Positions 15,730 to 35,475 of a stretch of DNA of 64,000 nt are shown piece after piece. Numbering within the stretch: the stretch's first letter is position 1; every line of letters begins with the position of its first letter. Where the stretch lies: assembly GCF_011745625.1 (NCBI RefSeq), contig NW_027191456.1:1054001-1118000 (forward strand), in the 5' to 3' direction. The stretch is from Cladosporium halotolerans (Eukaryota). The position numbers and the translations under genes were made by a program. The notes beneath the pieces are model-generated. The model worked only from the letters and a program-made list of their open reading frames with translations. It had not been told where the DNA came from and ran no database searches.

Positions 15730-18700
15730 ATGGGCAGGATCAAGAAGACGCCGTCGGAGCGTCATACTGCCACAATCTCTCCCGCCATCACAGAGTTCGT
15801 TGAGACAGCATCACGGACGCCGCTTCATGAATTGCCTTCAAAGCTCACCAGCTTCCCGCGCTTATGGCCACTGCCTCGCGGAGACCTATACCACTGGATT
15901 CCTCTGCTAGACCGCTTCGATCACATTCTCGAACTTTTCAACAAGGAGTACGGTCTCAGCGATGGTCCCCAGACACAGCCTTTCGAGCGTAGATTGCTGG
16001 AAAAGGGCGATGCAGAGGATGGAATGCCATACCCTGCCGGTGGTGCTCAGAAACAAGAGCTAGATGCGTCAGGTTATTCAGCAGAGGGCGACAAGGAGCT
16101 TGTGGAAGCTATCGTGTACTTCACTCGCCTGCTTCTGGAACACTGCGGTAACCGTAGCTTGTACGCAAGCAGCGGGCACATCAACGACCTCCTGCACACT
16201 ACGTCGTTGAGCCTGCTGAAGGCGGCATTGAAGCTTGGTCTGCGCCTTGCACAGCGCTACCAAGTTGCTCGGTATAAGAACAACTCGGCGCAGATTCAGC
16301 CAACGCTGCTAGCAAACCACTATAACTTCAATCTTGACAACTTGCACAAGGTCGCATTGCCCTTCCCCAAGCCGCCGAGCACTCTCTCGAACGTGGCTAC
16401 AACGACACCAGGTAAGGGTAAGGACAAGGCTGTCCCTACATCTTCCTTCAACCCTTCCGACCTCGCTGCACTTGTAAAGGAGCCGCTCTCCGGGACTCTG
16501 AAGCGCGAGCTGTCAAATGTTCACGTTACCTTCTACGATCAGCCATCAACGTTTGAAAAGCCTCATGCCATGCACACATCTCAAGCTGAGGCTGCGCCGG
16601 ATTCTCCGACTCCTGTGCGTAGAACATCGGCCCTCGGCCCTTCGAGAGATCGGCCGCCTGTTGGTGACCGCAGTCAAAGTACAAACGACGTGGGCGACAC
16701 TCCGGTAAAGTCGCGCGAGACTGATACGTCTAATGCTCCCAAGACCTTCCAACTGCCAGCCTCTCGGGTGGCAGAGGTCCCTTCTTGGCAACTGATGCGT
16801 GAGGCAATGGCTAGCGTTCCAAAAGAATCCCATTACGACCTTCTCAACCGTGTTCGCATCGCACAGGCCTTTGCTTCTCCGCAACCGCCCATACAGCTCC
16901 TGTTGGAAACTCGGCTGCTCGCAATCGCCAACCTTGCTTACGCCGTGGGAGAGTCAAAGTTCCAGGAGAAGATTGGCCAGGCTGATGGCGAAGAGCCTCG
17001 CAGGTTTCATTTGGCACAGCAGTTGTGCGATCTCCTGCAACCGGTGTCCAACGGCCAGAGTGTGCTCGCTCTCGACCTTGAGACAACTGTACTGCAAACA
17101 CTCGAAGCACTGGTCCGGCTCAAGCACAAGTGGTCGGAAGTCGTGGAAGCGCTGGCCATCACGGTGAACCATGGCATCCTGTACTACGAGCTTCGCAAAG
17201 CAGTTGCAACCTTACATTCCGAAGATCACGCGGACACCGAACTCGAACTGAAGGAAACCGACTGGCGGACAGCCACATTGACACTTGTCGACACGGTGTC
17301 CCAGGCCAACCCGCAAGCCAAGTACGCCGAAAGGATGCTCGCCGCAGGTGTCATGGACATCGAGATTGAAGTCCTCTCTCTGCGCACCAAGCGTGCTGAA
17401 CGACACCAGGAGAAGGTCATTGGTTTCCTCGATGCTTACATTCACAACATCGCCGCCTCCTTCCAGACCTTGACCTCCCTCAAGGGCCTCGACATCGTCA
17501 GCGACCTTGCTAAGTACGAGGTCGACACGTCATTGGCGAGCCTGGAACGCGGCGAAGAGATGCCCGCGAGTTACAAGTCCAAGGTCATCGACTACGATAT
17601 TCCTTACTACCAACAAGCGACCCTGCGCTCACTTTTCAAGTTCATCGTCCATCTCTTCGACCACAACTCTGGTGTTCACGATCGCGAGTTGCGGAATCTC
17701 CTGGACTCACCTCAAATGCTTGGAGCGCTCCGAACAGTCATCGAGCGCGCCGGCGTCTTCGGTTCGAACGTTTGGTCTGGTGCCGTCAACACTGTTAGCA
17801 ACTTTATCCACAACGAGCCGACTAGCTTCCAGGTCATCGCTGAGGCTGGCCTCGCGAAGGCAATTCTGGAAACTATTACAAAATCCAATCTGTCAGACGA
17901 GATCCCTGCAGACTTTGAGCCTAATGTCAGTTTTGAGCCAGAGCCTGTGGAAGTTGTCGACGGTGAGGTCAAACACCCAGTCGTCGGCGGCATCCTGCCT
18001 GTTGGTGAAACCATCTGCGACATCCCGACCGCGTTTGGCGCGATTTGCTTGAATGAGAATGGCATGAAGCTCTTCCAATCATCAAACGCTCTCGACAAGT
18101 TCTTCGACATCTTCGTCTCACCACCTCACGTCCGCGCTCTTGAAGACGAGGGCATGACAGCTGCAACTGTCGGCAACGCTTTCGACGAGCTTTCCCGCCA
18201 TCATCCTCAGCTGAAAGAGCAAATTCTTGCTGCTGTCGTCAAGATGGTGAAGAAGGTGCGTTCCGTGACTCAAATCCTTGCCGAGCAGTCGGCAGTAGGC
18301 GCTAAGCTCTGGACATTGCCTTCTGGCGAGGAAGAGTCTGAGGTCTCTGGCGGCGTGCGTGCTGTCGCTGGTCACGGGGTTTTTGAGGCCAGTGGCAAGA
18401 TCACTGCGAGTGAGATTGGAGAAGACGCCCCCGAGCGCGCGAGGGCAACGCCCTACATCAGCGCTTGTATCAAGTTCTTGGACGGCTTCTTCCATAACTC
18501 CACCATGTGTCAGAACTTTTGCGTGAACGGTGGCGGCGAGGTCGTGATCGATCTTGCAACTTCGCCTAGCAATCCGCCAGATCTTGTTGCTTATAATGTG
18601 TTCAGCAAGATGGCAACGGTTGTCAAGCGCATGTGCGAAGAGAAGCCCCATCTCATCCTACCGAGTCTGCTCGCCAGGACCCAGGCTGCACTCAAGCACC

Positions 18701-21700
18701 TGAAGCCTCTGATCGATTCCAAAGAGCCTGGCAGCTACTTCAAGCAGTACACTGATCCAAGTGTCGCGAAAGAAACGCCGGCGGGCCCAGAGGGAACCAC
18801 TGTCATCAAAGCTCTCACATCCGCTCATGTGTTATCGCACATGCTTGGTAGGGCGCTTGTGCCTAGCAGCTCAAGCCCGCGTCACCCGAGTTCCAACCAG
18901 ATGTTCACCATGCTCAACTTCACGGATGTCTACGTCGAGCTTATCGACTCTTTCAGCAAGCTGCATACGGCTTGTCTATGGGAGAACCTCGAGCTCCGTG
19001 ATCGCCTTTCAGACAACGAGAAGTGGAAGAATGGCACTGACCCTAGGCCATTCTCTCCTCGACGCGTTAACGCGGAAGGCTTTGTCGAACTGCCTCAAGC
19101 CAGCAACGGTGACGGTAAAGCGGAAGGCAATGCTAAAGGGCCTTCGGCATCTGACATTGGAGAGACGAAGGCAGAGCTTTTCGCCTTTAAGAATACAAGA
19201 GCAATTCGCTACCTCATCAGCCAGACCCCTACAGGCATCGAATCATTTTTCCAGAATCTGGGTCAAGTTTTGATCCCAAAGAGGACTACAGACCTCAACA
19301 CCAAGCAGCACGCCGCACTTGTTGCTGACCACCTCGCGAAGTCAGCGCTTCGGGAGCTCGATGCTCGCAAGCTCGGCAAAGTCAACGAGGATGCTGAGCT
19401 CAAGTACGTGGGCCATGTGCTGCACTGCACGACCCGTATGCTGCTTCGTAGCACTCATTCCATGGACACGTATGGCAGTAAGGAGGCCGTCACCCTCGTT
19501 CTGCTCAAATTCTATCACGCCGACGGATTCGACAAACTCAAAGAGAAGCTGAAGTTGTTCGGTGATGTGCTTGCTCGCCCTGGTGACAAGCCTGAAGCGG
19601 TTGAGAATGCTGCTCGAGAGGGTCTCTCGACGATCCTCAGCTTCTACAGTCAGATTGTTCGACCGAAGTGCATCAACGATGCTGCACAATCCAACATTCT
19701 TTCTGTCCGCGGAGCCGACAACGCAGACTATTTCGCTCCAGGCCAATTCCTTGTTGAACTCCGCAAGGTAGTTCTCGACACTGTTACCGAGGTCTGGCAC
19801 TCTGATGCTATCGTGCAAATAGGAGATCACAACGTCAAAGCTGTCATCGAGATCCTCAAGTTTGTTCTCAAGGCAGAGGGTGAGGAGCGTGGTCTTACGC
19901 GTAGCGAGAAGGCGACGCGCCGTGTCACTACTGCTGCACCTGATTTCACGCTGAAGAACTTCAGCAACGTGGACAACGTTAAAAACGCTGGCTTTGAAGG
20001 CGATCTTGCCCGCGAGGCAATTTACCGATGCAACAACCACGAGCTGTTCGCCAAAGAATACGCAGATCTTCGTAAAGCACACAACGCCCCTCGCTTTGCT
20101 ATTCCTGGCGGTGACAAGGAGCCCGAGCCGGTTCCTTCAAACGATAACACCCGATCTGTTGAGATGCGTGACGCTGGTGCTGAAGAAGCGCAGCCCACTA
20201 GCAGCTCGCAGGAGGTGCCGTCTTCTGACCAAGACATGTCAGAAGATGACAATTTTGGTTCGCTTGGTGCTCTTCCAGTCGACCTGGCCAACTCCGATCT
20301 GCTAGCCATGACCGACCGGAGTCAAGCGTTGCACCGCATGCTCGGGTTCGCGACTGCCGAAGCACCTTCAGCTGAACCTCCCGCCGAGGACACCAAGAGG
20401 CCTTTCATTACCGTCGAAGACCTGAGCGAGGCCAGAGATGAGCTGCGCGCAGACATCATCGACAGATGCTTAGAGGTTTTAAGTGGACAGCCGAACATAA
20501 CATTCGAGCTAGCGGACCTCATTCAAGCTGCCGTTGCTAAGTCCGGCGAAGGCGCCAACCCCAGGGCTGAGATTGGCAACACCCTCGTGTCTTCTCTCCT
20601 CTCATTGCAAGGCGAGGAAGGCTCTGAGTCGGGCGCCAAGATTTCGTCTTATGCACACCTGGTGGCTCTTATTATGCAGGAGCGGGACTTCTTTGATTCC
20701 ACATTGGACGAGCTTAAGGATAACTTCGAGTCTTTCATCAATTGGATTCAACTTCGTCCGGACCAGAAGGCAGAGGATGCCCCATGGATCGAAATGCTCC
20801 TGCTGATCATGGAGCGCGTGCTTGCAGAGGACGAACAGCCCATTGAGGTCGAATGGACCGCGCCGTCCACTGACGAGCCCACGAAACCTCTACCAGAGCC
20901 CAAGATCCCCGAGCCTGTTGTGCCTCAGGAAACTCGCGCGCAGCTCTTCGGCACAATCGTGGATCTCCTGCCAAAGGTTGGCAAGAACTCTTCACTTGCG
21001 TTGTCAATCACGCGTGTGCTCGTGATCCTGACCCGCCGCCATGATCTGGCATCTCGTTTGAGCGAGAAGATGTGCATGTCTCGCCTCTTTCTCATGATCA
21101 GGCAGCTTTCGGGCGCCGTTGGAGAGAAGCTCCAGACTTCGTTCTTGCTGGTCCTCCGCCATCTGATCGAAGACGAGCAGACCATCAGACAAATCATGAA
21201 GACTGAGATCAAGAATGCGTTCGAAGGCCAGCGCACCATGCGAGCCATTGACACGACCTCCTACGTTCGCAACCTGTATCATCTCGTGCTCCGCGACCCC
21301 CAGATTTTCGTGGAGGTCACGCAGGAGATGCTTGAGATCCCTCGCTTCGATGGTCACCCCAACCGTGCACAGACTCTCGCATTGAAGCCTGTTCCGAAGC
21401 CTGAGGAGAAGCCTGAAGATGCATCTGCCACCAAGACCGAAGGCGAGTCTAGTGCTGCCGCGCAAGCGAAGCCGACTGAGACGAAGACTCCCGATGTAAA
21501 CTCTACGGACGGCATCGTGCCTTTCTTGCTCCGCGAGCTTTCAAGCTACAGGGAGGTCGAAGACAAGCCAGCTCCCAAGAAGCCTGAAATCAAAGCCCCT
21601 GCTCCAGAGGGCAATGCGGCGAATGCGGGCGACGTGGACATGCCGGACGCAGCTTCAGGCGAGAAGTCCGGAGAAGACAAGAAGGAGGAGAAGCCTGTGT

Positions 21701-24700
21701 TCAAGGCTGAGGAGCACACCATTTACATCTACCGATGCTTCCTCCTTCAATGTCTGTCAGAGCTCCTGGCTTGCTACTCGCGCACGAAGCTCGAGTTCAT
21801 CAACTTCTCTAGGAAGTCGGAGTCTCAGCCTGCCACGCCGTCGAAGCCTCGCTCTGGCACGCTCATGTATTTGCTGAATGTCCTTCTGCCTACTGGCTCT
21901 CTGGAGCACAAGGATGAGATTGTCCACCGCAAGAGACAGGTGACTTCTAACTGGGCTACCACAGTTCTTGTCGCGCTGTGCTCGCAGACGCAGGAGAACT
22001 ACAATCCGCGCCAAGTCAACAGTCAAAAACAACCGGAGGAAGATCCCGACCTCCTGTTCGTCCGCCGCTTTGTTCTGGATCATGCTATCAAGGTTTACAA
22101 AGACGCGACCACTTCCCCCGAGCCCTTGGACCAGCGCTACTCGAAGCTTCTTGCGATTGCAGATCTTTTTGATCGCATGCTGAATGCCAAACCCGACAGG
22201 CAGAGCCCCATTAATGCCGCCGGCTTCGACAAGTCGCGTCAGCAGCTCGGTCGTCTGATGTACGAGAAGAACCTGATCGCAGCTTTGACTTCTTCTGTTG
22301 CCGAGCTTGATCTGAATTTCCCGAACGCTAAGCGCGCTGTTAAGCACATCCTTGTCCCGCTCAAGACTCTCACAGATCTCGCCGTAGAGCTCAGTCAGCG
22401 TGCTGAGCTGTCTTCTACGCCAGGCACTAGCACTGAAGAAGAGGAAATTGCGTCCGACACGTCCGCTTCCGAAGGAGATTCTGAGGAAGAGCGCGAGCAG
22501 ACTCCTGATCTCTATCGTAACTCAGCCCTTGGCATCTACAATGCCGAAGAGGATGACGACGAGGACGAAGATGACGATGAAGATGACGACGAAATGGAAG
22601 ACTACGAGGGCTACGACGAGGAAATGGAGTTCGACGAGGAAGATGGGGCTGCTCCTGGCGACGTCGTCAGCGACGATGACGAAGACGAGATGGAGGGCAT
22701 GGAAGGCATGGAGGAGATGGGTCCGATTGAAGGTCTCCACGGTGACCGCATGGAAGTTGAAGTCATCGACGGATCCGACGACGATGAGGATGACGAGTCC
22801 GGAGACGAAGTTGACGATGATGACGAGGACGAAGATGGCTACGACCATGATCTCGAAGAGATTACTGGCGATGAAGAGAATGCCAGCATGGCTGACGATG
22901 TCGAAGAGGCCGACTGGGAAGACGAGGTCGACGACTATGACGACGAAGAAGAGGCTCGTCACGGCGGCCCGCTTGACCATATTGCCCACGTTCTCGGCGA
23001 GCCTGCCGACGGCGTCGACCCCGATGATGGTCTTCAGGTTGATATGGGCGCTGATGGCGAAGACGAGTTCTTCGAGGACGAAATGCCGCCCGGCGAGGAC
23101 GAAGATGACGAGGAGGACGAAATCGACTTCGATGGAGACGTCGTCTACGAGCCCGAGCACGAGGACGAGGAAATGGACGAGATGGGCTGGGAATGGGACG
23201 TGCCACCACCGGCCATGGGCCGCGGTCATCACCATCACCATCGTCAGGGCGGCGCCGGCCTCGGCGAATTCCTCGATTTCATGAACGCCGATCCTTTGCG
23301 TCCGGCGCCTCCTCGCTACCACCGTGGCATCGGAAACGGACGTGGCGAAGAGGAAGGCACCAACCCTCTTCTCCAGCGCAACTTTGGCCCGGCCATTGGT
23401 GGTGACCGTGCTGGAGGTGCCACCCCGCCTTTCATGTCGCGTGGCTCGCGCATGGGTGGCGGGCAGAACATCATTGGTGACCTTGTCGCTGCCATGAACC
23501 GCGGTGGCCCTGGCAATGGTGAATTCGAGCGCATCAGCCTGAACGTCGACCCTCGCCAATTTATGGGAGGCCGCGGCTTACACCCTGTTTTCGCAATCAG
23601 CCCTCGTGGAGGTGCCCAATTCATTGACATTGACCCTCGTCGCCCCTGGCGTGAGCAAGTCCCTGGCTTCACCAACTCCCGCGGGACTTCCCCCACTGAT
23701 GAAGGCCAAGCTGTTGAGTTCCGCCCTATGGTCACGTCTGTGCGATGGCAAGAGGAAGCCCGCATGCTCTTCGGTGGCAAGCACCACGAGAAGGCCACCC
23801 GCATCATCCACAGCCTGCTTAGGCTTCTCCTTCCTCCTGCCATGGAGGCCAAGAAGATCCGCGACAAGGAAGAAGCCGAGCGCAGAGCTGCTGAAGAAAA
23901 GGCTCGCGAAGAAGAGCGGCAGAAGGCTGAGGCTGAGCGCAAGGAACGTGAAGAGCGCGAGAAGAAGGAGCGCGAAGAGAGAGAAGCCAAAGAGGCTGAA
24001 GAGGCCGCCGCCAAGGCTGCTGCTGAAGCTCCTGAAGGCAGCCAGCCCGCACCGACCGACGAGGCTGCTCAAGGTTCCTCTGCTGCTGCTGGCGAAGCTG
24101 CTGCCGAATCCGCACCACGCGAGCGCATCACTATCACTATCCGGGGTCGCGAACTCGACATCACCGAACTTGGCATTGATCGTGAATACATCGAAGCACT
24201 CCCAGAAGAATTCAGGGAAGATGTTATTATGGGCCAATTTGCTGAACGCCGCCGTGCTGCACAGGAGACCGAGGTCACCCAGAGTGGAGAAGCACCAAGC
24301 GAGATTAGTCGCGAGTTCCTGGACGCCTTGCCCGCAGAGCTACAAGCCGAGCTGCTTGCCTCTGAGGCTAGAGATCGACGTCGCCGCGAGCAGCAAGAGG
24401 CTAGACGCCAACAGCGCGCTCAAGGCGGAGGACAGGCGGCCCAGGCTCAAGACATGGACCAAAGCGACTTCCTTGCCACACTCGACCCCGGCCTTCGTCA
24501 GACTGTTCTCATGGAGCAGGACCCGGAAATGATCAACTTGCTCCCGGAAGAGCTGCAGCGCGAAGCGCGCGAGCTCATTGGCGACAGGCCCAGACACCGC
24601 CCTGGGAGAGATGTGCGCGGTCCTCGTGTCATCAACGTGCCTGCGGGTGGTCTCCCGCAAGCCGGCGAGGAAACCGAGGAGCGTCAGCGCTTCAGGCCAG

Positions 24701-27414
24701 TGGTGCAAATGCTTGACAAGCCTGGCGTTGCCACGCTTCTGCGTCTCATGTTCGTCTCGCTTCACCACCGCGCTAAGAGCTCTTTGCACTGCATCCTTTC
24801 TGATGTCTGCAAGAACACGCAGAACCGTGCAGAGGTCATCAGCATCCTCCTCTCGATCCTCCAAGACGGAACCGCAGACGTGGGAGCTGTAGAGCGCAGC
24901 TTTGCTCAGCTCTCTCTTCGTGCGAAGCAACTCGCTGGCGCGAAGACCCCTCAACCGCTCAAGCGTACCCTCACCGGCCAAATGGTTACGCCAGCCACCG
25001 AGCTTTCGCCACTCAACATTGTTCAGCAGTGCCTTGGCACCTTGAATGCTCTTTCGAACGACAACCCGAAGGTGCAGACCTTTTTCCTCTCCGAGCATGA
25101 GACCATCAGCAGCCAGAAGGCGAAGTCTGCCAAGAAGAACAAGGGCAAGGAGAGCAGGGCTGCTAAATACCCACTCAACGCCCTCCTGATGTTGCTGGAT
25201 CGCAAGTTAATCACGGAGAACACTGGCGTCATGGAAACCCTTGCTGGTCTTCTCAGTCGTGTCACTCATCCGCTGCATCTCTTGACGAAGAAGAAGGAAG
25301 CCGAGGCGAAGAAGGAGCAAGAGACTGCTGAGGCTGCTGAAAAGACAGAAGACGAGGCGGCTCCCTCGGCCGAATCTTCCGGCGATGTTCCTATGCCAGA
25401 GGCCACCGCTGAGCCTGCTGGCGCAGCATCTGCTGATCAACAGCCTGCTTCCAACGAGAAGCCTTCCTCCGACGACCAGAAGGAGGCCAAACCTGAGACA
25501 AAGAAGAAGCGGGAGCTCGAGCCGCCTGAAGTGCCTGACGAAAACATTCGCCTAGTTATTAACATTCTTGCTTGCCGCGAATGCCCTAGCAAGACCTTCA
25601 GTGACACCCTCGACATCATCAAGCACCTGACTGCCATTCCGGGCGCTAAGGAGACATTCGGCAAAGAGCTCATCCGTCAAGCCCAGGAGCTCGGACAAAA
25701 CATCGTAGCTGATCTCGAGGATCTTGCCGGCCAGATAGGAACTGCGAAGACCGGCATCGATCTTCAAGGAATGGCCCTCGCCAAGTTTTCTTCTTCGGGC
25801 TCTCAGCAACGCCGACTTCTCCAGGTTCTGATTGCGCTTGATCACCTCTTTGACCCCAAGCGCATGATGGGTCTCCAGAGCGTATCTAAGGAATCCGTTG
25901 ACCCCAAGCTGAAGGAAGACATTCTCACCACGCTCTCCGAGAGCGCCACCTTCGAGAAGCTTTGGAAGAACCTGAGTCTCTGCCTTGGTGCAATCCGCCA
26001 GAGAGGCAACATGGTCAACGTGGCGACCATTCTCTTACCTCTCATCGAGGCTCTCTTCGTTGTCTGCCGCAACAGCGCTCTCAAGGAGTCTACACCTGGT
26101 ACTGCTGAGGTGGCTCCGGGCACGCCACTGCCGGAGACGAGGATGGAGGGTCTGTTCTTCAGCTTCACTGAGGAGCACCGCAAGATCCTGAACGAGCTGA
26201 TCCGCAACAACCCGAAGCTCATGAACGGCAATCTGTCCATCTTGGCCAAGAACTCCAAGGTCCTTGAGTTCGACAACAAGCGCAACTACTTCAACCGCAA
26301 GCTCCACACTCGTACTGATCGGTCTGGCACCGGCTCTCTGCAGCTGCAGGTGTCCCGCGATCGCGTCTTCCTTGACTCTTATAAGTCCCTCTACTACAAG
26401 AGCGGTGAAGAGATCAAGAACGGAAAGCTGAACATCCGCTTCATCGGCGAAGAGGGTATCGATGCAGGCGGTGTCTCTCGTGAGTGGTTCGCGGTCATGG
26501 CCCGCCAGATGTTCAACCCGGATTATGCTCTCTTCAACCCTGTGGCTTCGGACCGCACCACATTCCATCCCAACAAACTCAGTGGCATCAACGAAGAGCA
26601 CTTGTCTTTCTTCAAGTTCATCGGTCGCATCATTGGCAAGGCGCTCTACGAGGGACGTCTGCTCGATGCTCACTTCAGCAGAGCGGTTTATAGGCGCATG
26701 CTTGGCAAGTCGGTGTCTCTTAAGGACATGGAAACGCTTGACCTTGACTACTACCGGTCTCTTGTTTGGATCCTCGAAAATGATATTACGGATGTCACTT
26801 TCGAGACGTTCTCCGCTGAGGCTGACACTTTCGGCGTTACTGAGACGATTGACCTTATCCCCGATGGTCGCAACATCCCTGTCACCGAAGAAAACAAGCA
26901 GGAGTACGTCCGTTTGGTCGTCGAACACAAGCTCGTCAAGTCTGTCGAAGACCAACTCAACCACTTCCTCAGCGGCTTCCACGACATCGTCCCCGCTGAG
27001 CTGGTCTCCATCTTCAACGAGCAAGAACTCGAGCTGCTCATTTCCGGTCTGCCTGACATCGACGTTGACGACTGGAAGAATACCACTGAGTATCACAACT
27101 ACACGGCTACGTCGCCGCAGATCCAGTGGTTCTGGCGCGCGGTCAAGAGCTTCGACGAGGAGGAGCGCGCTAAGCTGCTGCAGTTCGTCACGGGCACGAG
27201 CAAGGTCCCGCTCAACGGCTTTAAGGAGCTCGAGGGCATGAATGGCTTTGCCAAATTCAACATCCACCGCGACTACTCTAGCAAGGACAAGTTGCCCACA
27301 AGCCACACTTGCTTCAACCAGCTCGACCTCCCCGAGTACGAGAGCTACGAGCAACTCCGCCAGCAGCTCTACACGGCTGTCACGGCGGGCAACGAGTACT
27401 TCGGCTTCGCTTAG
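15730..27414 (+). CDS. TOM1: HECT E3 ubiquitin ligase TOM1/HUWE1 (3894 aa)
   Basis: N-terminal PRGDLYHWIPLLDRFD (DUF908/913 region), long acidic tract at about 22.5-23.2 kb, UBM-like GIDREYIEALPEEFR and EFLDALPAELQ repeats, C-terminal HECT domain (GEEGIDAGG, LLQFVTGTSKVP, LPTSHTCFNQLDLP, YFGFA). Confidence 0.97.
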   Translation: MGRIKKTPSERHTATISPAITEFVETASRTPLHELPSKLTSFPRLWPLPRGDLYHWIPLLDRFDHILELFNKEYGLSDGPQTQPFERRLLEKGDAEDGMPYPAGGAQKQELDASGYSAEGDKELVEAIVYFTRLLLEHCGNRSLYASSGHINDLLHTTSLSLLKAALKLGLRLAQRYQVARYKNNSAQIQPTLLANHYNFNLDNLHKVALPFPKPPSTLSNVATTTPGKGKDKAVPTSSFNPSDLAALVKEPLSGTLKRELSNVHVTFYDQPSTFEKPHAMHTSQAEAAPDSPTPVRRTSALGPSRDRPPVGDRSQSTNDVGDTPVKSRETDTSNAPKTFQLPASRVAEVPSWQLMREAMASVPKESHYDLLNRVRIAQAFASPQPPIQLLLETRLLAIANLAYAVGESKFQEKIGQADGEEPRRFHLAQQLCDLLQPVSNGQSVLALDLETTVLQTLEALVRLKHKWSEVVEALAITVNHGILYYELRKAVATLHSEDHADTELELKETDWRTATLTLVDTVSQANPQAKYAERMLAAGVMDIEIEVLSLRTKRAERHQEKVIGFLDAYIHNIAASFQTLTSLKGLDIVSDLAKYEVDTSLASLERGEEMPASYKSKVIDYDIPYYQQATLRSLFKFIVHLFDHNSGVHDRELRNLLDSPQMLGALRTVIERAGVFGSNVWSGAVNTVSNFIHNEPTSFQVIAEAGLAKAILETITKSNLSDEIPADFEPNVSFEPEPVEVVDGEVKHPVVGGILPVGETICDIPTAFGAICLNENGMKLFQSSNALDKFFDIFVSPPHVRALEDEGMTAATVGNAFDELSRHHPQLKEQILAAVVKMVKKVRSVTQILAEQSAVGAKLWTLPSGEEESEVSGGVRAVAGHGVFEASGKITASEIGEDAPERARATPYISACIKFLDGFFHNSTMCQNFCVNGGGEVVIDLATSPSNPPDLVAYNVFSKMATVVKRMCEEKPHLILPSLLARTQAALKHLKPLIDSKEPGSYFKQYTDPSVAKETPAGPEGTTVIKALTSAHVLSHMLGRALVPSSSSPRHPSSNQMFTMLNFTDVYVELIDSFSKLHTACLWENLELRDRLSDNEKWKNGTDPRPFSPRRVNAEGFVELPQASNGDGKAEGNAKGPSASDIGETKAELFAFKNTRAIRYLISQTPTGIESFFQNLGQVLIPKRTTDLNTKQHAALVADHLAKSALRELDARKLGKVNEDAELKYVGHVLHCTTRMLLRSTHSMDTYGSKEAVTLVLLKFYHADGFDKLKEKLKLFGDVLARPGDKPEAVENAAREGLSTILSFYSQIVRPKCINDAAQSNILSVRGADNADYFAPGQFLVELRKVVLDTVTEVWHSDAIVQIGDHNVKAVIEILKFVLKAEGEERGLTRSEKATRRVTTAAPDFTLKNFSNVDNVKNAGFEGDLAREAIYRCNNHELFAKEYADLRKAHNAPRFAIPGGDKEPEPVPSNDNTRSVEMRDAGAEEAQPTSSSQEVPSSDQDMSEDDNFGSLGALPVDLANSDLLAMTDRSQALHRMLGFATAEAPSAEPPAEDTKRPFITVEDLSEARDELRADIIDRCLEVLSGQPNITFELADLIQAAVAKSGEGANPRAEIGNTLVSSLLSLQGEEGSESGAKISSYAHLVALIMQERDFFDSTLDELKDNFESFINWIQLRPDQKAEDAPWIEMLLLIMERVLAEDEQPIEVEWTAPSTDEPTKPLPEPKIPEPVVPQETRAQLFGTIVDLLPKVGKNSSLALSITRVLVILTRRHDLASRLSEKMCMSRLFLMIRQLSGAVGEKLQTSFLLVLRHLIEDEQTIRQIMKTEIKNAFEGQRTMRAIDTTSYVRNLYHLVLRDPQIFVEVTQEMLEIPRFDGHPNRAQTLALKPVPKPEEKPEDASATKTEGESSAAAQAKPTETKTPDVNSTDGIVPFLLRELSSYREVEDKPAPKKPEIKAPAPEGNAANAGDVDMPDAASGEKSGEDKKEEKPVFKAEEHTIYIYRCFLLQCLSELLACYSRTKLEFINFSRKSESQPATPSKPRSGTLMYLLNVLLPTGSLEHKDEIVHRKRQVTSNWATTVLVALCSQTQENYNPRQVNSQKQPEEDPDLLFVRRFVLDHAIKVYKDATTSPEPLDQRYSKLLAIADLFDRMLNAKPDRQSPINAAGFDKSRQQLGRLMYEKNLIAALTSSVAELDLNFPNAKRAVKHILVPLKTLTDLAVELSQRAELSSTPGTSTEEEEIASDTSASEGDSEEEREQTPDLYRNSALGIYNAEEDDDEDEDDDEDDDEMEDYEGYDEEMEFDEEDGAAPGDVVSDDDEDEMEGMEGMEEMGPIEGLHGDRMEVEVIDGSDDDEDDESGDEVDDDDEDEDGYDHDLEEITGDEENASMADDVEEADWEDEVDDYDDEEEARHGGPLDHIAHVLGEPADGVDPDDGLQVDMGADGEDEFFEDEMPPGEDEDDEEDEIDFDGDVVYEPEHEDEEMDEMGWEWDVPPPAMGRGHHHHHRQGGAGLGEFLDFMNADPLRPAPPRYHRGIGNGRGEEEGTNPLLQRNFGPAIGGDRAGGATPPFMSRGSRMGGGQNIIGDLVAAMNRGGPGNGEFERISLNVDPRQFMGGRGLHPVFAISPRGGAQFIDIDPRRPWREQVPGFTNSRGTSPTDEGQAVEFRPMVTSVRWQEEARMLFGGKHHEKATRIIHSLLRLLLPPAMEAKKIRDKEEAERRAAEEKAREEERQKAEAERKEREEREKKEREEREAKEAEEAAAKAAAEAPEGSQPAPTDEAAQGSSAAAGEAAAESAPRERITITIRGRELDITELGIDREYIEALPEEFREDVIMGQFAERRRAAQETEVTQSGEAPSEISREFLDALPAELQAELLASEARDRRRREQQEARRQQRAQGGGQAAQAQDMDQSDFLATLDPGLRQTVLMEQDPEMINLLPEELQREARELIGDRPRHRPGRDVRGPRVINVPAGGLPQAGEETEERQRFRPVVQMLDKPGVATLLRLMFVSLHHRAKSSLHCILSDVCKNTQNRAEVISILLSILQDGTADVGAVERSFAQLSLRAKQLAGAKTPQPLKRTLTGQMVTPATELSPLNIVQQCLGTLNALSNDNPKVQTFFLSEHETISSQKAKSAKKNKGKESRAAKYPLNALLMLLDRKLITENTGVMETLAGLLSRVTHPLHLLTKKKEAEAKKEQETAEAAEKTEDEAAPSAESSGDVPMPEATAEPAGAASADQQPASNEKPSSDDQKEAKPETKKKRELEPPEVPDENIRLVINILACRECPSKTFSDTLDIIKHLTAIPGAKETFGKELIRQAQELGQNIVADLEDLAGQIGTAKTGIDLQGMALAKFSSSGSQQRRLLQVLIALDHLFDPKRMMGLQSVSKESVDPKLKEDILTTLSESATFEKLWKNLSLCLGAIRQRGNMVNVATILLPLIEALFVVCRNSALKESTPGTAEVAPGTPLPETRMEGLFFSFTEEHRKILNELIRNNPKLMNGNLSILAKNSKVLEFDNKRNYFNRKLHTRTDRSGTGSLQLQVSRDRVFLDSYKSLYYKSGEEIKNGKLNIRFIGEEGIDAGGVSREWFAVMARQMFNPDYALFNPVASDRTTFHPNKLSGINEEHLSFFKFIGRIIGKALYEGRLLDAHFSRAVYRRMLGKSVSLKDMETLDLDYYRSLVWILENDITDVTFETFSAEADTFGVTETIDLIPDGRNIPVTEENKQEYVRLVVEHKLVKSVEDQLNHFLSGFHDIVPAELVSIFNEQELELLISGLPDIDVDDWKNTTEYHNYTATSPQIQWFWRAVKSFDEEERAKLLQFVTGTSKVPLNGFKELEGMNGFAKFNIHRDYSSKDKLPTSHTCFNQLDLPEYESYEQLRQQLYTAVTAGNEYFGFA

Positions 27415-28273: not shown

Positions 28274-29893
28274 CTACTCAAGCTTCAGCGCACGCGCGTG
28301 GCTCCTCTTCGAGTACCCCTTCGGCCCCTCGCCTTTCCCGTGGCCGTGGAAGGTCTTCTTGAGAATGTACGCGATCCAGTCCAGGAGGTCCTTGAGCGTC
28401 ATGCCCTTGGACGGCGCCTCGTCGGAACCCTCGGGCGCGGGCGCGTCGGGGGCATCGGTCGGCGAGGGCGGCGCGGCCGTCGCGTAGCCGCTGGGGAGTG
28501 CCGTCGGTGCGGCTTCGGTCGGCAGCGCTTCGGTTGGCAGGATCGAGGTCAGGTTCGCGATGTAGGAGCTGATGATCGGGTTGACGGACGCGGAGGGCAC
28601 GATGCTAGTCAGGGCGGAGGTGGGAAGGGTGGAGGTCAGATTCTGGAGGGCGGAGGAGAGGACTGGCTCCAGGGACACGGAGGGTGCTGGAGGCGCGGAG
28701 GTTGGGACGGGGGCGACCAGAGTGCTGTTTGCTGGGCCGTAGGGAGCTGGCGCGGTAGGTGCGGCCGTCGAGGCGGTCTCGGTCACGGTGATGGTGCTGC
28801 CTAGGCCGCTTGAGGCGCCGGTGGGCGCGACGAGGGTGCTGTTTGCCTCTGGATATGGGAATGGTGTCTCGGAGGGGGTGCCGGAGGTTGTGTCTACCGG
28901 GTTGACGATGGAGCTCGAGGGAACAGTCGGACCAGCCGTTGGCGCCACGACAGTGCTGTTCGGCGATGGGTAGGGGTATGGCAAGCCGGTGCCAGCGCTG
29001 GGGACGACGAAAGAGCTCTCGGCCGGCTCTACTGGGATTTCGGAGCTTGACTGCTCAGGGCTTGCAATTGAGCTGGAAGGTGCAGTTGGGCCAGCAGTGG
29101 GCGCCACGACGGTACCGTTTGGCGAAGGGTAGGGGTAGGGCAGGCCAGTTCCAACGCTCGGCACAGCGGAAGAAGTGTCAGCGGGAGCAACAAGAGTCGA
29201 GGACTCGGCCGTTGGCAGGACGATCGTGGTGTTCACGCCAGGGTAAGGGTATGGCGCGCCAGTGCCCGCAGGTGGGACAGCAGGGCCAGTTCCTGTGGGG
29301 AAGGGTGCTACAAGAGAGCTGGAAGGAGCCGAGGCAGTAGGTGCAATTATCGAACTGTTGCCCGCAGGGTAAGGTGCAGGGACATCGGTCGGGACAGTCG
29401 GAGCACTGCTGGCCGGGCCAGAAGCAGCAGTCGAGGAGGCACGCTCGGTTGTGACAGTGACAGTGGAAGTGATAGTGCGAGTGATCTCACGGGTAATCGT
29501 AGAGGTAGCCGCAGGAGCTGGGGCGGAGCCACCGCTTGGGTAGACGGTCAGAGTGGCAGTAGCAGTGACATCTTTCGTGATAGTCTGCGTGTTCGTGATC
29601 GTGGCCGTCTCCGTGATGGTTGAGACGATGGGGGCGCTGCTGTCGTCCGGTGAGACCAGGGTGTTGCTGGGCGCCGGTGCGGTCTCCGTGACTGTGACTG
29701 TCTGGCCCTCGACTGCAGACCCCGAAGGATAGACCGTGGCAGTCTGGGTCAACGTCGAAACGCTGGTGACGGTGGAAGTCGTGGTTGGCTCGCAAGAGGA
29801 GTAGTCTTCCTGAGGGAAGGCTTCCCGCTTAGCAGCAGTGGCCAGGGTGGCCAGGGATGCCAAAACGGCAATCGTAGAGGATGTGAACTTCAT
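28274..29893 (-). CDS. Secreted Ser/Thr/Pro-rich (mucin-like) glycoprotein with PYP-NxT repeats
   Basis: Signal peptide MKFTSSTIAVLASLATLATA followed by a Kex2-type KR; T/V-rich segments; repeated PYP(YP)..N-x-S/T..VAPT units; no hydrophobic GPI tail. Confidence 0.8.
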   Translation of the reverse strand: MKFTSSTIAVLASLATLATAAKREAFPQEDYSSCEPTTTSTVTSVSTLTQTATVYPSGSAVEGQTVTVTETAPAPSNTLVSPDDSSAPIVSTITETATITNTQTITKDVTATATLTVYPSGGSAPAPAATSTITREITRTITSTVTVTTERASSTAASGPASSAPTVPTDVPAPYPAGNSSIIAPTASAPSSSLVAPFPTGTGPAVPPAGTGAPYPYPGVNTTIVLPTAESSTLVAPADTSSAVPSVGTGLPYPYPSPNGTVVAPTAGPTAPSSSIASPEQSSSEIPVEPAESSFVVPSAGTGLPYPYPSPNSTVVAPTAGPTVPSSSIVNPVDTTSGTPSETPFPYPEANSTLVAPTGASSGLGSTITVTETASTAAPTAPAPYGPANSTLVAPVPTSAPPAPSVSLEPVLSSALQNLTSTLPTSALTSIVPSASVNPIISSYIANLTSILPTEALPTEAAPTALPSGYATAAPPSPTDAPDAPAPEGSDEAPSKGMTLKDLLDWIAYILKKTFHGHGKGEGPKGYSKRSHARALKLE

Positions 29894-30822
29894 GTTCGAG
29901 GTTGAGGCTTGCTTGAAAGAACGACTGGGGTCTGTTTTTGCTTTGCCTCTTGAAACCCGCGAGCACCAGTGCTCGATGAGGAACGAATGAATGTGATGTA
30001 ACGAATGAAACCGCTCACAGAGCGTTTGGAAAAGACCGTGGTCACCGGGAACGATGGGCGTGCGTGTGTGAAGAAAGCAAAGGAGAGATGCTACGGATGG
30101 GCTGGGGACCTCATATACTTACCAATACTCGCGCCTTGCGGTCGTTGTCATACCTTCTGCCCAGACATGCTCGGTTTCACGATAGAGACGTATCGAGAGT
30201 GCGAAGACTACGCAAGTCAGGGCCTCCCGCCATTCGTGAGCTTGCGGCAAGCCACCTGCAATCACCAGCGTGATGAGGGCTCCTCGGCGTGTGGGCGTAC
30301 GAATGGGAGACGAGGATTAGATGGAGGTCCCGCTGCCAATAGCACATCAGCCGAAGAGGCGCACGGTAGCGGTACCCTTCGTCATTTCCGCATCGGCGGG
30401 CGTGGGGAGAGAGTTGCGATCTCTGACGATGCGCGTTTCGGGTTGAAGATTAGTCGTTTAGCCAGTCGGGAGGAGTGACTTCAAGCCGGTCTAGGCCACT
30501 TCGAGCCCCTGCATTCCCGCCTGGATTTGCGTGGAAGGATTGGATCGACGACCAGGTGGCAGCCTTGGGGAGGCTCTAACATGGGTCGGACGGTGATATG
30601 CCAGAAATACACCATCTCTGCCGTGTGCACAGTAGTTTGTCTCGAACGCAACAAGGCCAGCGTCCCTGTCCTGGCTCACGACTCCTGATCGCTGCCAAGA
30701 AGCCGAAATGCAGGGCGAACTGGTTCGACTCCCAGGAACGTCGCGCCCAATCTGCATCTGTATAAAAGACAGGCATGGCCGGCTAAAATGAGGAAGTCAT
30801 GGAGGGGGTAGACGTGGAGAGG

Positions 30823-30847
30823 AAAAAAAAAGAAGAAAGAAAAAAAA
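30823..30847 (-). terminator. RNA polymerase III oligo-T terminator of the tRNA gene
   Basis: A T8 run begins 5 nt after the discriminator base on the minus strand (A-run 30840-30847 on plus), followed by a second T9 run. Confidence 0.8.
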
Positions 30848-30852
30848 TCTCA

Positions 30853-30980
30853 TAGCTGAGAATGGTTTCGATCCATTGCCCTCCGGGTTATGAGCCCGGC
30901 GCCTATGTGAATGTTAGGTACGATTCATGGGTACAGATTTCTCGAAGTGAGAACTTACGCTTCCGCTGCGCCACTCAGCT
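30853..30980 (-). tRNA. tRNAi-Met: Initiator tRNA-Met (anticodon CAT) interrupted by a 56-nt GT-AG intron in the D-stem
   Basis: Exon 1 30980-30959 plus exon 2 30902-30853 give 72 nt: AGCTGAGTGGCGCAGCGGAAGC|GCGCCGGGCTCATAACCCGGAGGGCAATGGATCGAAACCATTCTCAGCTA. Acceptor stem AGCTGAG/CTCAGCT with A1-U72, D-stem GCGC/GCGC, anticodon stem CCGGG/CCCGG with three G-C pairs, CAT at 30892-30890, T-loop ATCGAAA (A54/A60). These are the eukaryotic initiator hallmarks. Confidence 0.92.
30903..30958 (-). other. Spliceosomal-type (U2, GT-AG) intron within the tRNAi-Met gene
   Basis: Minus strand reads GTAAGTTCTCACTTCGAGAAATCTGTACCCATGAATCGTACCTAACATTCACATAG: 5' site GTAAGT, branch CTAAC (30917-30913), 3' TAG. 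Exact GT..AG removal restores the cloverleaf. Confidence 0.85.
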
Positions 30981-31281
30981 TGTGGATGAAGGCTTGGCTT
31001 CTGCAAAATAATATGTACTATTGTTATTTGCAGAGCTGACGGCAAGCCTACAACCTCATTCAAGGGAATCAACGCTACCAATACATCCTGAACACCTCAG
31101 CTGCGCGAAAACCTGATTTCGCATTTGCGCATGCTAGAATATCCTTTCTCTTAATGACCCTAGGACCTCCAAACACTGCCCCGGGTCACAATTGACACAA
31201 TCCGTGTTCTCCTATCGGTTTCACACTGGCACCAATCTTTTAGGCTGTTCTGCAGCCGCTTGAAACCATACCCAAGCCACC

Positions 31282-32232
31282 ATGGCACCGATTACCGGAC
31301 CATCTCATCTGGTCAACTCGCTAGCGAGCCCGGCACATCTCGAAACATCCGCCTCCCAACTCGACGGCGTTCCCAAGGATTTGGAAGACTCGATCCGCTT
31401 TGAAACAAGCAGGCTTCTCCAAGCGACCGGCATCTTGCTGCGGTTACCTCAGGAAATAATAGCGCAGTCCATCGTGGTCCTATCGAGGTTCTGGTCTGGT
31501 GCTGATGGAATGAGTCTGTTGGAGTGCGACGCCGTGGTGAGCATTCCCCTCACAACAGCAACCAGATGATCTACAACTGACACCCACCAGGACGCAGCAG
31601 CCGCCGCGCTCTACCTAACCGCCAAACCCTCCGCCACCCCTCTCTCCCCCAGATCCCTCCTCACCGTCCTCGAATACACCAGCACCGTCTCCCCCCATTA
31701 CTCCCAAGCTAGCACAGGCGCCTCCGAACCCCAGTGGTCCCTCTCCGAAGGCTCCTACGAAACCGCCCGCGACCGCCTCTACGCCACCGAAGCACAGCTG
31801 CTCCGCACCCTAGGCTTCCAGACCCACGTCGCGCTCCCGCACGCCCTCTGCATCAACTACCTGCAGACCCTGCAGGTTTTCAAGGCGCCTTCCTCGGACG
31901 GCTCCGCGCTCGCGAAGCGCGCCATCAAGCTGCTCAACACCGCGCTCCTCAGCCCGCAGCAGTTGTTCCTCACACACCAGCCGCCTGCTCTCGCTACGGC
32001 GGCGATTTACCTCGCGGTGCGCGAGGAGGGGGTCAATTTGCCGGATGTGGAGTGGTGGGAGGTCTTTGATGTTGATAGGGAGGAGTTGGGGTTTTTGGTC
32101 GTGGCCCTGACGAGTGTGGAGGGGTTTGCGGAGAGGGAGAGGGAGGTTTGGGGCGACAGGAAGGTGCCGTTGACGGTTGGGGAGGTGAGGGCGGAGATTG
32201 AGCGGAGGACGATGCTGGAGGAGGGGGAGTAG
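31282..32232 (+). CDS. Cyclin L-like protein (Lcp1/CCNL family)
   Basis: ETSASQLDGVPKDLEDSIRF..LLQATGILLRLPQ; intron 31537-31590 then AAALYLTAK, EAQLLRTLGFQTHVALPH, LFLTHQPPALATAAIYLA, WWEVFDVDREELGFL. Confidence 0.8.
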
Positions 32233-32524
32233 ATGGTGTGGTTATCGTTATGTCCATGTGCGTTTGTGTTTTGGGCTAGCTGGTTTGATGATGCGCGATT
32301 CGCCCCGTGTAATAGTCTGCTTCGATGCCCACTCGAGCCGGGGCTCATCTCGTTCTGCTGTACGTGGACAGCTTCTTCCTCGATAGCTCAAGGCTTTCGG
32401 GCCTGCCACTTGCCATGCTCACCAGTCTCTTGGATGCAATAAATATACCCAGTGCATATCCCCGGAGCGGGGTCTTCCACTCTCAGCTTCAACACCAGCA
32501 CTTTATTCATAATGTTGAATTCAT

Positions 32525-33535
32525 CTACAGCTTCGCATCCTTCGTGTGGCGATAATCATAATGCCAATCTTCCCGTGCCAAATCAGATCGCACTTGATAA
32601 TTCTCTTCCGCATCCTCCACAATTTGCATATCCACGTCCGCCACCGCCATGCCCTCTGCACAACTCCCCAACCGAACAAGCGGCCCAGCGTACGGCACGC
32701 AAATCTGCGAAAGACCCGCGTAGCCCCTCCCTGGTGGGCCGCCAGCGTTCGCGAATACGACGGCTGGAACTATATGTCAGCTTGACATCCTCGAAAGTAG
32801 CAAAAAAGAGTAAGAAAGATACGCACCGCACGTATTCTCAAAACACCTCGCCGTCAACAAACTATCCAAGAACAACCCCTCCGCGACCGGGTTCACCGCC
32901 AGCCCTTTCTCCGAACAGTCCTTCAGCGTCCAGAAGGTCGGCACGATGACCAGCTTCGCCCCCTGCGCGATCAGCTCCCGCCACGCCTCCGGAAACGCCA
33001 GGTCCCAGCAGATCAGCAGCCCGACGCGGCCCAGCGGCGTGTCGAAGACCGGGTGCGCGTCGTGCGCAGACGACGTCAGGTGGTCGCGCTCGATCGCGCC
33101 CCACAGGTTCTTCTTCACGTACCGGCCTGCGATGGCGCCGCTGGCGTCGATGAAGTAGGCGACGTTGAGGAGCTGCTCCGAGGGTGTGTCGGCGTCGTGG
33201 AGCTCGAGGATCGTCCCCGGGACGATGTTGATGTGCAGGTCGCGGGCGAGGGCGCGGTAGTTGTTGAGGTAGGTCTGCCACTGGCTGCAAGCGGACTTGA
33301 AGTTGGGGTCTTGCGGGACCCAGTTTAGGAGGTGGTATTCGGGGAGCACGGCGAGGGCGGCGCCTTGCGCGGCGGCGGCGCGGATTTGCGTGGCGGCTTT
33401 GGCGTAGTTGGATTCGAGTTGCATGGGCTGGGGAGGGGTGTTAGTGGTGATTGGTCTGATTTGGGGATATTGGGGTCGTCTAGTCATTACTTTGGGGTGC
33501 ATTTGGATCACTGCTATCTTGTGTGTGGGCGCCAT
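32525..33535 (-). CDS. Nitrilase/carbon-nitrogen hydrolase family protein with C-terminal PTS1 (AKL)
   Basis: KIAVIQ, catalytic triad motifs LPEY / YVKKNLW / LLICWDLAFPE; introns 33428-33490 and 32764-32826; last exon AVVFANAGGP..YAGLSQI..HTKDAKL*. Confidence 0.88.
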
Positions 33536-35475
33536 GGTAAGTAGCAATGCGGGTGAAAGAATGAAGTCCTGGGTATTGATAAAGAATGATATACTGTAGA
33601 CAGATATTGAGGAGCAGTGTCTATATCTACTAGAGATTGGTTTATCTTATGTGAGTGTTCGTGGGCTATGTTCGATTAGGAATGGGCATCCGAGTCCCGA
33701 GCGATGATAAATGTTGCTATCGACCCCGCCCTGTGCCCCGCCACGCTTGTCGGAAGGACCATGGTGGGCATGTTGGGAAGATGATGTCCTTCAGTTTCAA
33801 TAGAAATTCTCCAGTTGACGTTACCTACGCTTTTCCTCGCCAGTGCCGATGTCCACGTTCAGGAGAGAAGCTCAGGTCTGCTGGTTGTAGTGAATGCCAC
33901 TTTCGATTGAGCGGGATGCTCATTGGATCAGGTGGAAGAACCTCTCTCGCATGATGGCATCTCGCCAAAGCGACTCACAACGGCATGAGTAATTATGGCA
34001 ACAAAAGAACTCACTTTGTCCTCTCATTATAGTTGATCCCAATTGGAGGCTGCCTTGAGACGAGGCCACATTTTCTTGTTGGAGGGAGAAGACGATAGGG
34101 TTAGGGTTGGGGTAGCAGAGCTCAGCGGAGATATAGTGACATCTTCTGTGCAACTCACGATGTGATCCAAGGATGTTGCGAATGCGGACACGAAACGTTT
34201 CGGTGATCATTTTGCAACCTCGAGTAGGGCTACCACCTCATGGGTGGTGCACAGCTGTTCGAGAGGCTGCCTCGACTCCTAAGGCTCGTAATTCCCACGT
34301 GACCAATGCCCACGAATGATAGACACTACACCAAGGTAAGCGTACGCAGGTACGCGCGCAAGACACCCTGAGGCGTTATGCAAGTGAGACCATTGGGCAG
34401 TGGTTTTGTAGTCACGACCACAAACCTCTCGAGGCGTTCGCCATACAGCTGCAGCGCACAAGCATGAACGCAGCATTGCGAGATGACAGGTGTTTCACGC
34501 CAGCAGCCAAGCGAAGACTCCCCGGAACACGCCGTTTCGAATGTTCTATCGCCGCGTGTCCGACAGCCAGTGAGAGCTGGCGGAGCAATTTCTCCCGCAC
34601 AAGCATTTTGAGTCTCGTATAAGATGTCGGTTGGGTGAAACGGCAGCAGTGGCAGCTCGCTACCAACCGGCCTGTCTCCCCTGTAGCGACGATGAGGTCC
34701 GCATACACCCATACCGCGCCCTCATAAAGACTGGCTGCACCCCAACGACCGCGCGATCGGTGCGCCTCCTCCACGCCACCCGCATCCCGCGCATATCCTC
34801 CGATCCTCACGCACAAGGGCACAAGGGCACACGCACCCTTGGCGCACCCTCACACCCTCCGCAGCGCCAAACATCGGTCCGCCCTGGCGCTAACGAGCAA
34901 CGGCCGCCACGGCTAAACCCCAAAACGCCATTCCAACGGTTTTGACAGCCGCCCGCCGGTCTGGGCCTCGACCAGACGCGTGTGCCTCGCTATTTTTGCC
35001 TGCGCCCCCCCAAGAGTGTCATCATCGGGCGGCTCTCTCGATCCTCTGCCTTCGCCGATACGGGCGCCGGCACCCGCCATTGCGTCTGTGAGGGCTGCGA
35101 ACGCCTGTGCGTCGAGCATTTTCAACCCACTCCGCGGTCACTACGTACCTGTGTCTGGACCGAGGGCGTGTGCTGCATGTGACGGGGAAGAAGCTTGTTG
35201 GGATCTGCTTGCTCTGCTGCCACGCATCTGCCTTTGCGGGCATCGTTTCCTTGTCCTCGGTTCTGCGCAGTGCAAACCATTCTATACACCCTGCATCACC
35301 TGCTTTCTTGCATTCGAGCCCCAGGCATTATTATTCACTGTCATTACATCACTGTCGCTACCTCCATCAGCACCATTGCTGGGTTTGGGCACTGGTCTTG
35401 ATCGCAGACTGGTGATCCTTGCCCACCAACGCACCGACAACCACTCGTTTACAGCACGCGACACACAGCTTCGCC

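Follow-up and report, generated by a model that had tools for sequence, protein, structure and literature searches.

A spliceosomal-type intron in the D stem of an initiator tRNA-Met gene of Cladosporium halotolerans and in related fungal loci

How could an initiator tRNA-Met (tRNAi-Met) be made from a gene whose D stem is interrupted by 56 nt with the look of an mRNA intron? This question is raised by a locus of Cladosporium halotolerans that lies in the 64,000-nt (64-kb) stretch of DNA analyzed here, referred to below as the window. Eukaryotic tRNA introns are placed between nucleotides 37 and 38 in a 2023 review, which contrasts their removal with spliceosomal splicing (PMC10275265), and a 2025 paper sees no relation among three intron types and assigns spliceosomal introns to Pol II transcripts (PMC12530127). 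Likewise, in three sources nuclear tRNA introns form a single class that is located at 37/38 and removed by a protein endonuclease, and they stand apart from spliceosomal and XBP1 introns as one of three unrelated kinds (PMC10275265, PMC12530127, PMC10485636). A preliminary description of the locus had suggested that its precursor may be matured by the spliceosome, a reading that is supported by the analysis reported here, with catalysis by the spliceosome deduced from the signals of the intron. We put at roughly 0.8 the probability that the locus is a working nuclear gene for cytoplasmic tRNAi-Met, of Pol III type, whose intron is removed by the spliceosome; both the polymerase and the dependence on the spliceosome are read from sequence features and from the junction found in RNA.

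The gene lies on the minus strand of the window, where the sequence and a script agree with the preliminary description in finding a 72-nt tRNAi-Met split between nucleotides 23 and 24 by a 56-nt insert of the form GTAAGT..CTAAC..TAG. Its features, with the basis of each assignment, are as follows.

31005-31014, minus strand: AT-rich, TATA-like stretch at -25 to -34 from the tRNA 5' end, with no exact TATA[AT]A; candidate upstream promoter element (sequence)
30959-30980, minus strand: exon 1 of the initiator tRNA-Met gene, tRNA positions 1-23, 22 nt (sequence and ARAGORN cloverleaf after intron removal)
30963-30973, minus strand: A-box-like TGGCGCAGCGG in exon 1 (sequence)
30903-30958, minus strand: spliceosomal-type intron of 56 nt that separates positions 23 and 24 on the 3' side of the D stem (sequence)
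30953-30958, minus strand: 5' splice site GTAAGT (sequence; the commonest hexamer in relatives)
30913-30917, minus strand: branch-site motif CTAAC, with the branch A at 30914, 11 nt before the last intron base (sequence)
30903-30905, minus strand: 3' splice site TAG (sequence; YAG in 44 of 45 distinct introns of relatives)
30853-30902, minus strand: exon 2, tRNA positions 24-73, 50 nt (sequence, ARAGORN, and a partial Rfam tRNA match at 30861-30905)
30890-30892, minus strand: anticodon CAT in exon 2 (sequence and ARAGORN)
30864-30874, minus strand: B-box-like GGATCGAAACC in exon 2 (sequence)
30840-30847, minus strand: oligo-T (T8), Pol III terminator-like, 5 nt past the discriminator base (sequence)

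Once precisely 56 nt are taken out, ARAGORN calls a 72-nt tRNA-Met(CAT) whose four stems are fully paired, in line with the earlier statement that exact GT..AG excision restores all four. The cut at this locus can slide by 1 nt, and GT-AG borders are present in one register only. The intact locus is invisible to the same tools, as had been suspected: ARAGORN reports no tRNA in the 64-kb window and none in the unspliced 128-nt locus, and Rfam at gathering thresholds gives no match anywhere in the window. With the threshold relaxed to E ≤ 10, the tRNA model of Rfam matches 30861-30905 only, at 22 bits against a cut-off of 29. The specificity of this reconstruction is indicated by a control in which intron-like segments (GT..CTRAY(8-15 nt)..AG, 40-90 nt, both strands of the 64-kb window) were removed in silico. 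Two of the 503 removals yielded a tRNA across the junction, and both are at this locus, one being the 56-nt GTAAGT form and the other a 52-nt form that overlaps it and after whose removal 4 additional bases remain.

The reconstructed tRNA carries A1/T72, GGG/CCC adjoining the anticodon loop, and the T loop ATCGAAA, all of which are invariant in the 19 mature variants described below. Eukaryotic initiator tRNAs are marked by an A1:U72 pair, by an anticodon stem that ends in three successive G:C pairs next to the loop, and by A54 together with A60 in the T loop (AUCGAAA in place of TPsiCRA). The trinucleotide A54U55C56 is also named as an initiator mark in PMC3978253. By the ARAGORN call and these marks, the product of the locus is a eukaryotic cytoplasmic initiator tRNA-Met.

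The insert has the attributes of a U2-type GT-AG intron, namely GTAAGT at its start, CTAAC followed by 10 nt to the intron end, a terminal TAG, and a length of 56 nt. It had been likened in the preliminary description to the mRNA introns of neighboring genes in general, and the likeness stands for the sole intron compared, a 54-nt intron at 31537-31590 (GTGAGC..CTGAC..10 nt..CAG) that is spliced in the RNA run X2.

Copy number and expression were approached through the public sequencing runs X19, X2, X7, and X10, which were compared with positions 29800-32400 of the window as contigs or unitigs; some parts of this interval are uncovered in X2, X7, and X10. X19 contains 0.98 of the window words at an even depth of 33 over 2.6 kb, genes and spacers alike, and is therefore taken to be genomic DNA of the same species. 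In this run, exon 2 is found on a 52-nt unitig (30853-30904) with a depth of 139.8, about 4.2 times that of a single copy. Because this unitig extends unbranched 2 nt into the intron, AG stands before this 3' half in all of its approximately four copies, at a place where an intronless copy would show C. A further 32-nt unitig of depth 100 reaches 30906, and a 3953-nt contig is identical to the window over 30953-30982 (exon 1 plus GTAAGT) and divergent beyond, so that there is at least one further locus with the same intron start. A search for intronless copies returned none in the X19 contigs, and joined exons are found in 0 contigs of this DNA, although contigs show presence better than absence. 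The genome thus holds about four copies of the gene, every detected one with an intron of the same kind, and the window locus is not a lone broken copy; this number is an estimate from X19 unitig depth alone, which would miss any intronless copy whose 3' half is different.

The joined form is found in RNA. Run X2, from an organism about 97% like the window (organism A), is RNA by content, since the intron of the neighboring gene is joined there in a 954-nt contig of depth 25.6 and the intergenic depth is 0-4.6. A 309-nt contig of the same run, with a depth of 17.7, joins 30901 to 30958 and skips 56 nt, which read GT..AG on the minus strand once the cut is moved by 1. The same joint is present in an 88-nt contig of X10, a plant metatranscriptome recorded as RNA and belonging to a separate study, which also contains an unjoined contig of a copy with its intron at 25/26. 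The junction that had been predicted, GGAAGC/GCGCC, is therefore present in two RNA data sets from two studies, with one contig each in X2 and X10 and none in the X19 DNA. The flanks of these contigs differ from the window, over 233 nt downstream in X2 and 33 nt upstream in X10, and the contigs therefore come from paralogous loci or from related organisms; their shorter side measures 24-25 nt, which is weak in mixed samples. The joined tRNA thus exists as RNA, from paralogous or related loci, and is unseen as DNA in one genome.

Relatives of the gene were sought in metagenome contigs by scanning for the two exon cores with 42-72 free bases between them, without requiring GT, AG, or a branch motif. 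As the sequences of the D and anticodon stems were preset in the scan, along with an insert window that limited the first insert to 23-30, the clustering of introns at 23-30 and the invariance of these stems are partly by design. Forty-nine loci were recovered, and in 49/49 of them two to three registers restore the mature core, exactly one of which is GT-AG. The intron is located at 25/26 in 19 loci, at 26/27 in 12, at 23/24 in 11, at 24/25 in five, and at 29/30 in two. The 45 distinct introns are 48-60 nt long, and their 5' sites, all of fungal type, are GTAAGT (17), GTAAGA (9), GTATGT (5), GTTAGT (4), GTTCGT (3), GTGAGT (3), GTACGT (2), and GTAAGC (2). A CTRAY motif stands 9-13 nt from the intron end, counted after the branch A, in 45/45, and the terminus is YAG in 44 and AAG in one.

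After a single removal, ARAGORN calls tRNA-Met(CAT) in 41/49 loci. Two of the remaining eight are cut by contig ends, and six (five distinct) require the removal of a second intron of 49-56 nt, likewise of the form GT..CTAAC..AG, which follows nucleotide 8, 44, or 55 of the 72-nt sequence. The loci with two introns are L001, L019/L034, L008, L049, and L024. With a second intron after nucleotide 8 (L001, L019/L034), the A box and the 5' end are about 50 nt apart, nucleotide 44 belongs to the variable loop, and the second intron of L024, after nucleotide 55, lies inside the B box (GGATC/GAAACC). These two-intron arrangements sit oddly with internal Pol III promoters. Across all loci, inserts occupy eight different places, and an intron-bearing tRNAi is a trait of a gene family throughout a lineage of related fungi, beyond the one locus of the window.

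In a variant contig of X7, seven of the seven differences listed at the locus fall in the intron and none in GTAAGT, CTAAC, or AG, and the 4 bases just upstream of CTAAC all differ with CTAAC itself unchanged. In X7 (at 30897) and X10 (at 30900), intron-like sequence (…CTAAC…CAG and …CTGAC…TAG, respectively) adjoins exon 2 a few bases further in. The loose end at 30900 in X10 fits the 25/26 type of the metagenome loci, and that at 30897 in X7 would be a 28/29 type, which is absent among the 49 metagenome loci.

The reconstructed genes give 19 distinct mature tRNAs, in which standard pairs are formed by 399/399 stem cells and compensatory changes are seen at eight acceptor or T-stem pairs. Nineteen loci share the mature sequence of the window (the window itself, L005, L006, L009-L011, L016, L020, L022, L030-L032, L035, L036, L038, L039, and L044-L046), with exons identical at 72/72 nucleotides and introns that have a mean pairwise identity of 0.51. 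Conservation of at least 90% is confined within these introns to the 5' GT.AG, the branch CT.A.A, and the final AG. The expectation that splice signals would be kept as the interior diverges is thus confirmed by the single GT-AG register in all 49 metagenome loci, the CTRAY motif in all distinct introns, and the low identity of the remainder. The same 72-nt tRNA has its intron at 23/24 in three loci and at 25/26 in 16, and intron identity is 0.47 between these two classes vs. 0.53 within each. The 23/24 and 25/26 introns may represent one old intron shifted by 2 nt within a GCGC repeat, for which these values are not decisive.

Several other explanations of the insert can be weighed against this body of evidence. 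A lone interrupted tRNA gene that standard finders reject is usually read as a dead or idle copy, here an insertion-hit pseudogene whose function is covered by undetected intronless genes, and the inventory of copies is admittedly indirect. This explanation is nevertheless very improbable, as approximately four copies of the 3' half in X19 are all preceded by AG with no joined DNA form, exons are identical in 19 loci with introns at about 51% identity, stems remain paired through compensatory changes, terminators are kept in 41/41 loci, and the joined form is present in RNA; the earlier argument against a decayed pseudogene is upheld by the same findings. A second alternative holds that the tRNA splicing endonuclease and a ligase, or another protein-only pathway, remove the insert and that its GT-AG appearance is a coincidence. 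Non-canonical tRNA introns with a bulge-helix-bulge do exist in archaea, Cyanidioschyzon merolae, and nucleomorphs (PMC3978253), but the central 4-bp helix of that motif is possible in 1/46 of the loci vs. 75/920 shuffled controls, and the four-subunit enzyme of the fungal type is described in the available text of PMC10485636 as confined to 37/38, a site that it locates by measuring the body of the folded tRNA; an insert in the D stem disrupts that body. Moreover, the GT-AG registers and the branch motifs at fixed spacing have no role in such a pathway, and the inserts are found at eight different places. We regard this alternative as having only a slight chance of being correct. An endonuclease-type intron was rejected as a candidate class for the locus, the insert of the window lying at 23/24, those of relatives at seven other positions, and no bulge-helix-bulge being present.

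The insert might instead be a young mobile element of the introner type or a self-splicing group I or group II intron, and the several insert positions could indeed mean repeated insertion. Yet no second copy of the intron occurs in the 64-kb window, where the best other blastn-short match is 11 nt long with an E of 0.56, and the introner-like origin raised in the preliminary description is without support within that window. The introns of relatives are, in addition, old and diverged in place of being near-identical copies. A ribozyme core takes up hundreds of nucleotides and could not fit into 56 nt, and a search of 30700-31150 with Rfam at E ≤ 10 gives no group I or group II family. Both forms of this explanation are the least credible of those considered, and removal of the insert as a spliceosomal intron is retained as the preferred reading.

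The window gene is most likely transcribed by Pol III, to which its intact boxes and oligo-T point: it has the A-box-like and B-box-like elements in its exons and a T8 tract 5 nt downstream. Among relatives, an oligo-T tract (T≥4) is found within 40 nt downstream, mostly at 2-14 nt, in 41/41 evaluable loci, the window included, and most loci retain intact A and B boxes. T runs are not significantly avoided within the introns: five runs of T≥4 were seen vs. 9.2 expected (P 0.069), and one of T≥5 vs. 2.5 (P 0.24). Motifs were sought in the 60 nt that precede the tRNA at the window locus (30981-31040, minus strand) and at 42 further distinct loci. At -33 to -58, TATA[AT]A occurs in 16/43 distinct upstream regions vs. 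3.7 in shuffles, and CATC[GA]A occurs at about -8 to -52 in 15/43 vs. 1.7 in shuffles, including 11/18 regions of the tRNA type of the window. Together, these motifs may mark a promoter or start-site element plus a long 5' leader.

An alternative source of the precursor would be Pol II, which could make a long, TATA-driven, and perhaps capped transcript that is spliced co-transcriptionally by the spliceosome and from which RNase P and RNase Z excise the tRNA. The enriched upstream motifs are consistent with such a model, as are the joined RNA contigs from ordinary RNA libraries, whose flanks of 33 nt on the 5' side (X10) and 233 nt on the 3' side (X2) are long for a Pol III tRNA transcript, and internal Pol III promoters are hard to reconcile with introns that follow nucleotide 8 or split the B box. 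However, the oligo-T tracts are a Pol III terminator feature that has no role for Pol II, the boxes are intact in most loci, and contigs can chain overlapping transcripts, such that flank lengths are weak evidence. In some fungi and plants, Pol III genes have upstream TATA elements too, which also counts against Pol II. On balance, Pol II transcription appears unlikely, although the long RNA flanks, the upstream motifs, and the displaced A box or split B box leave room for Pol II or a hybrid promoter.

Under the preferred reading of a Pol III-type gene with a spliceosomal intron, the precursor would be transcribed by Pol III from the internal A and B boxes, perhaps with help from the TATA-like stretch, and transcription would stop at T8. 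The U2-type GT-AG intron would then be recognized through pairing of U1 with GUAAGU and of U2 with CUAAC, and the spliceosome would join C23 to G24. The D stem and the L-shape would form only after splicing, to be followed by RNase P and RNase Z processing, CCA addition, and modification. By extension to the metagenome loci, we consider it probable that all tRNAi in a large group of filamentous fungi derives from Pol III-type genes with one or two spliceosomal introns, in which case the spliceosome would be obligatory for its production.

Full-text literature searches, whose scope stopped at subscription-only journals, returned no paper on tRNA genes with a spliceosomal intron. [quoted passage not shown] Spliceosomal introns have also been described in fungal U3 snoRNA, in the U1, U2, and U5 snRNA genes of Rhodotorula hasegawae, and in ascomycete rDNA (PMC5832005, PMC5855946), and U1, U2, U5, U6, and rRNA are listed as hosts in PMC5855946. 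These are likewise spliceosomal introns in non-coding RNA, and none of the cases given in the available portions of these sources is in a tRNA. With respect to the literature as searched, what is new here is the tRNA as a host class for a spliceosomal intron in a structured non-coding RNA gene. The main text of a report on the tRNA set of Aspergillus niger, to the extent available, is silent on initiator genes (PMC6108506).

The parallel with U6 is close in several respects. Both are small, structured, and essential non-coding RNA genes with Pol III features that carry a short GT..branch..AG intron, and in both, unrelated introns occur at several positions depending on lineage, up to several per gene, with the splice signals alone conserved. 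Unlike U6, tRNAs have a splicing pathway of their own that is made up of proteins only, and they do not belong to the spliceosome, for which reason the argument made for U6, that introns arose by reverse splicing at the catalytic center, does not obviously apply. Dependence on prp genes has been shown for U6 according to the excerpted accounts, whereas dependence of the tRNAi intron on the spliceosome is deduced from its signals and junction.

Comparison with tRNA introns leads to a similar mixture of likeness and difference. Like the 37/38 introns cut by Sen/TSEN, the insert is an intervening sequence of a nuclear tRNA that needs to be removed before the molecule can function (PMC10275265, PMC10485636). 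It differs from them in its position in the D stem, and elsewhere in relatives, in its GT, CTRAY, and YAG signals, and in the lack of both anticodon-intron pairing and a bulge-helix-bulge. To our knowledge, initiator tRNA genes are not among the families that usually bear introns. In their location in the D arm and elsewhere, and in occurring several per gene, the fungal inserts resemble the non-canonical introns of C. merolae, nucleomorphs, and archaea (PMC3978253). The latter, however, have a bulge-helix-bulge and are cut by the endonuclease according to the available text of that source, whereas the introns of fungal tRNAi are without this motif and have spliceosomal signals. The genes concerned, including permuted tRNA genes, were missed by standard finders as well and were discovered since essential tRNAs seemed to be absent (PMC3978253).

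A spliceosomal intron in a tRNAi gene crosses a textbook border, and does so in an essential RNA, in all detected copies of one genome, and in many fungi. If the spliceosomal reading is correct, it would signify a second, unrelated action of the spliceosome on a Pol III-type transcript and provide a test of the reverse-splicing explanation of U6 introns. It would also make intron gain and sliding testable in a 72-nt gene in which every position is constrained. The supply of initiator tRNA would depend on splicing activity, wiring the capacity for translation initiation to the capacity for splicing. These introns would add a new class of nuclear tRNA introns to the endonuclease type, gained or shifted repeatedly (eight positions) and invisible to the tRNA finders used for annotation, and fungal annotations may consequently lack initiator tRNA genes, as ARAGORN and Rfam do at the window locus.

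The surroundings of the locus contain several protein-coding frames, and gene content together with the build of the introns suggests a filamentous ascomycete as the source. The gene with the 54-nt intron compared above occupies 31264-32232 on the plus strand, divergent from the tRNA; it is cyclin-like by eye only, and Pfam gives no family for 31570-32232, its second exon. On the same strand as the tRNA, a Ser/Thr/Pro-rich repetitive frame with a signal-peptide-like start (MKFTSS…) is located at 28274-30118 (minus strand), with its start codon about 900 nt downstream of the tRNA; this frame is expressed in X2 and X10, and Pfam gives no family for 28274-29950. A single uninterrupted frame of 3908 codons at 15688-27414 (plus strand) has UBM and HECT domains at its end (Pfam on 24400-27414) and presumably encodes a giant ubiquitin ligase of the TOM1/HUWE1 type. 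Finally, a carbon-nitrogen hydrolase of the nitrilase superfamily (PF00795, E 9.6e-28) is encoded at 32777-33646 on the minus strand.
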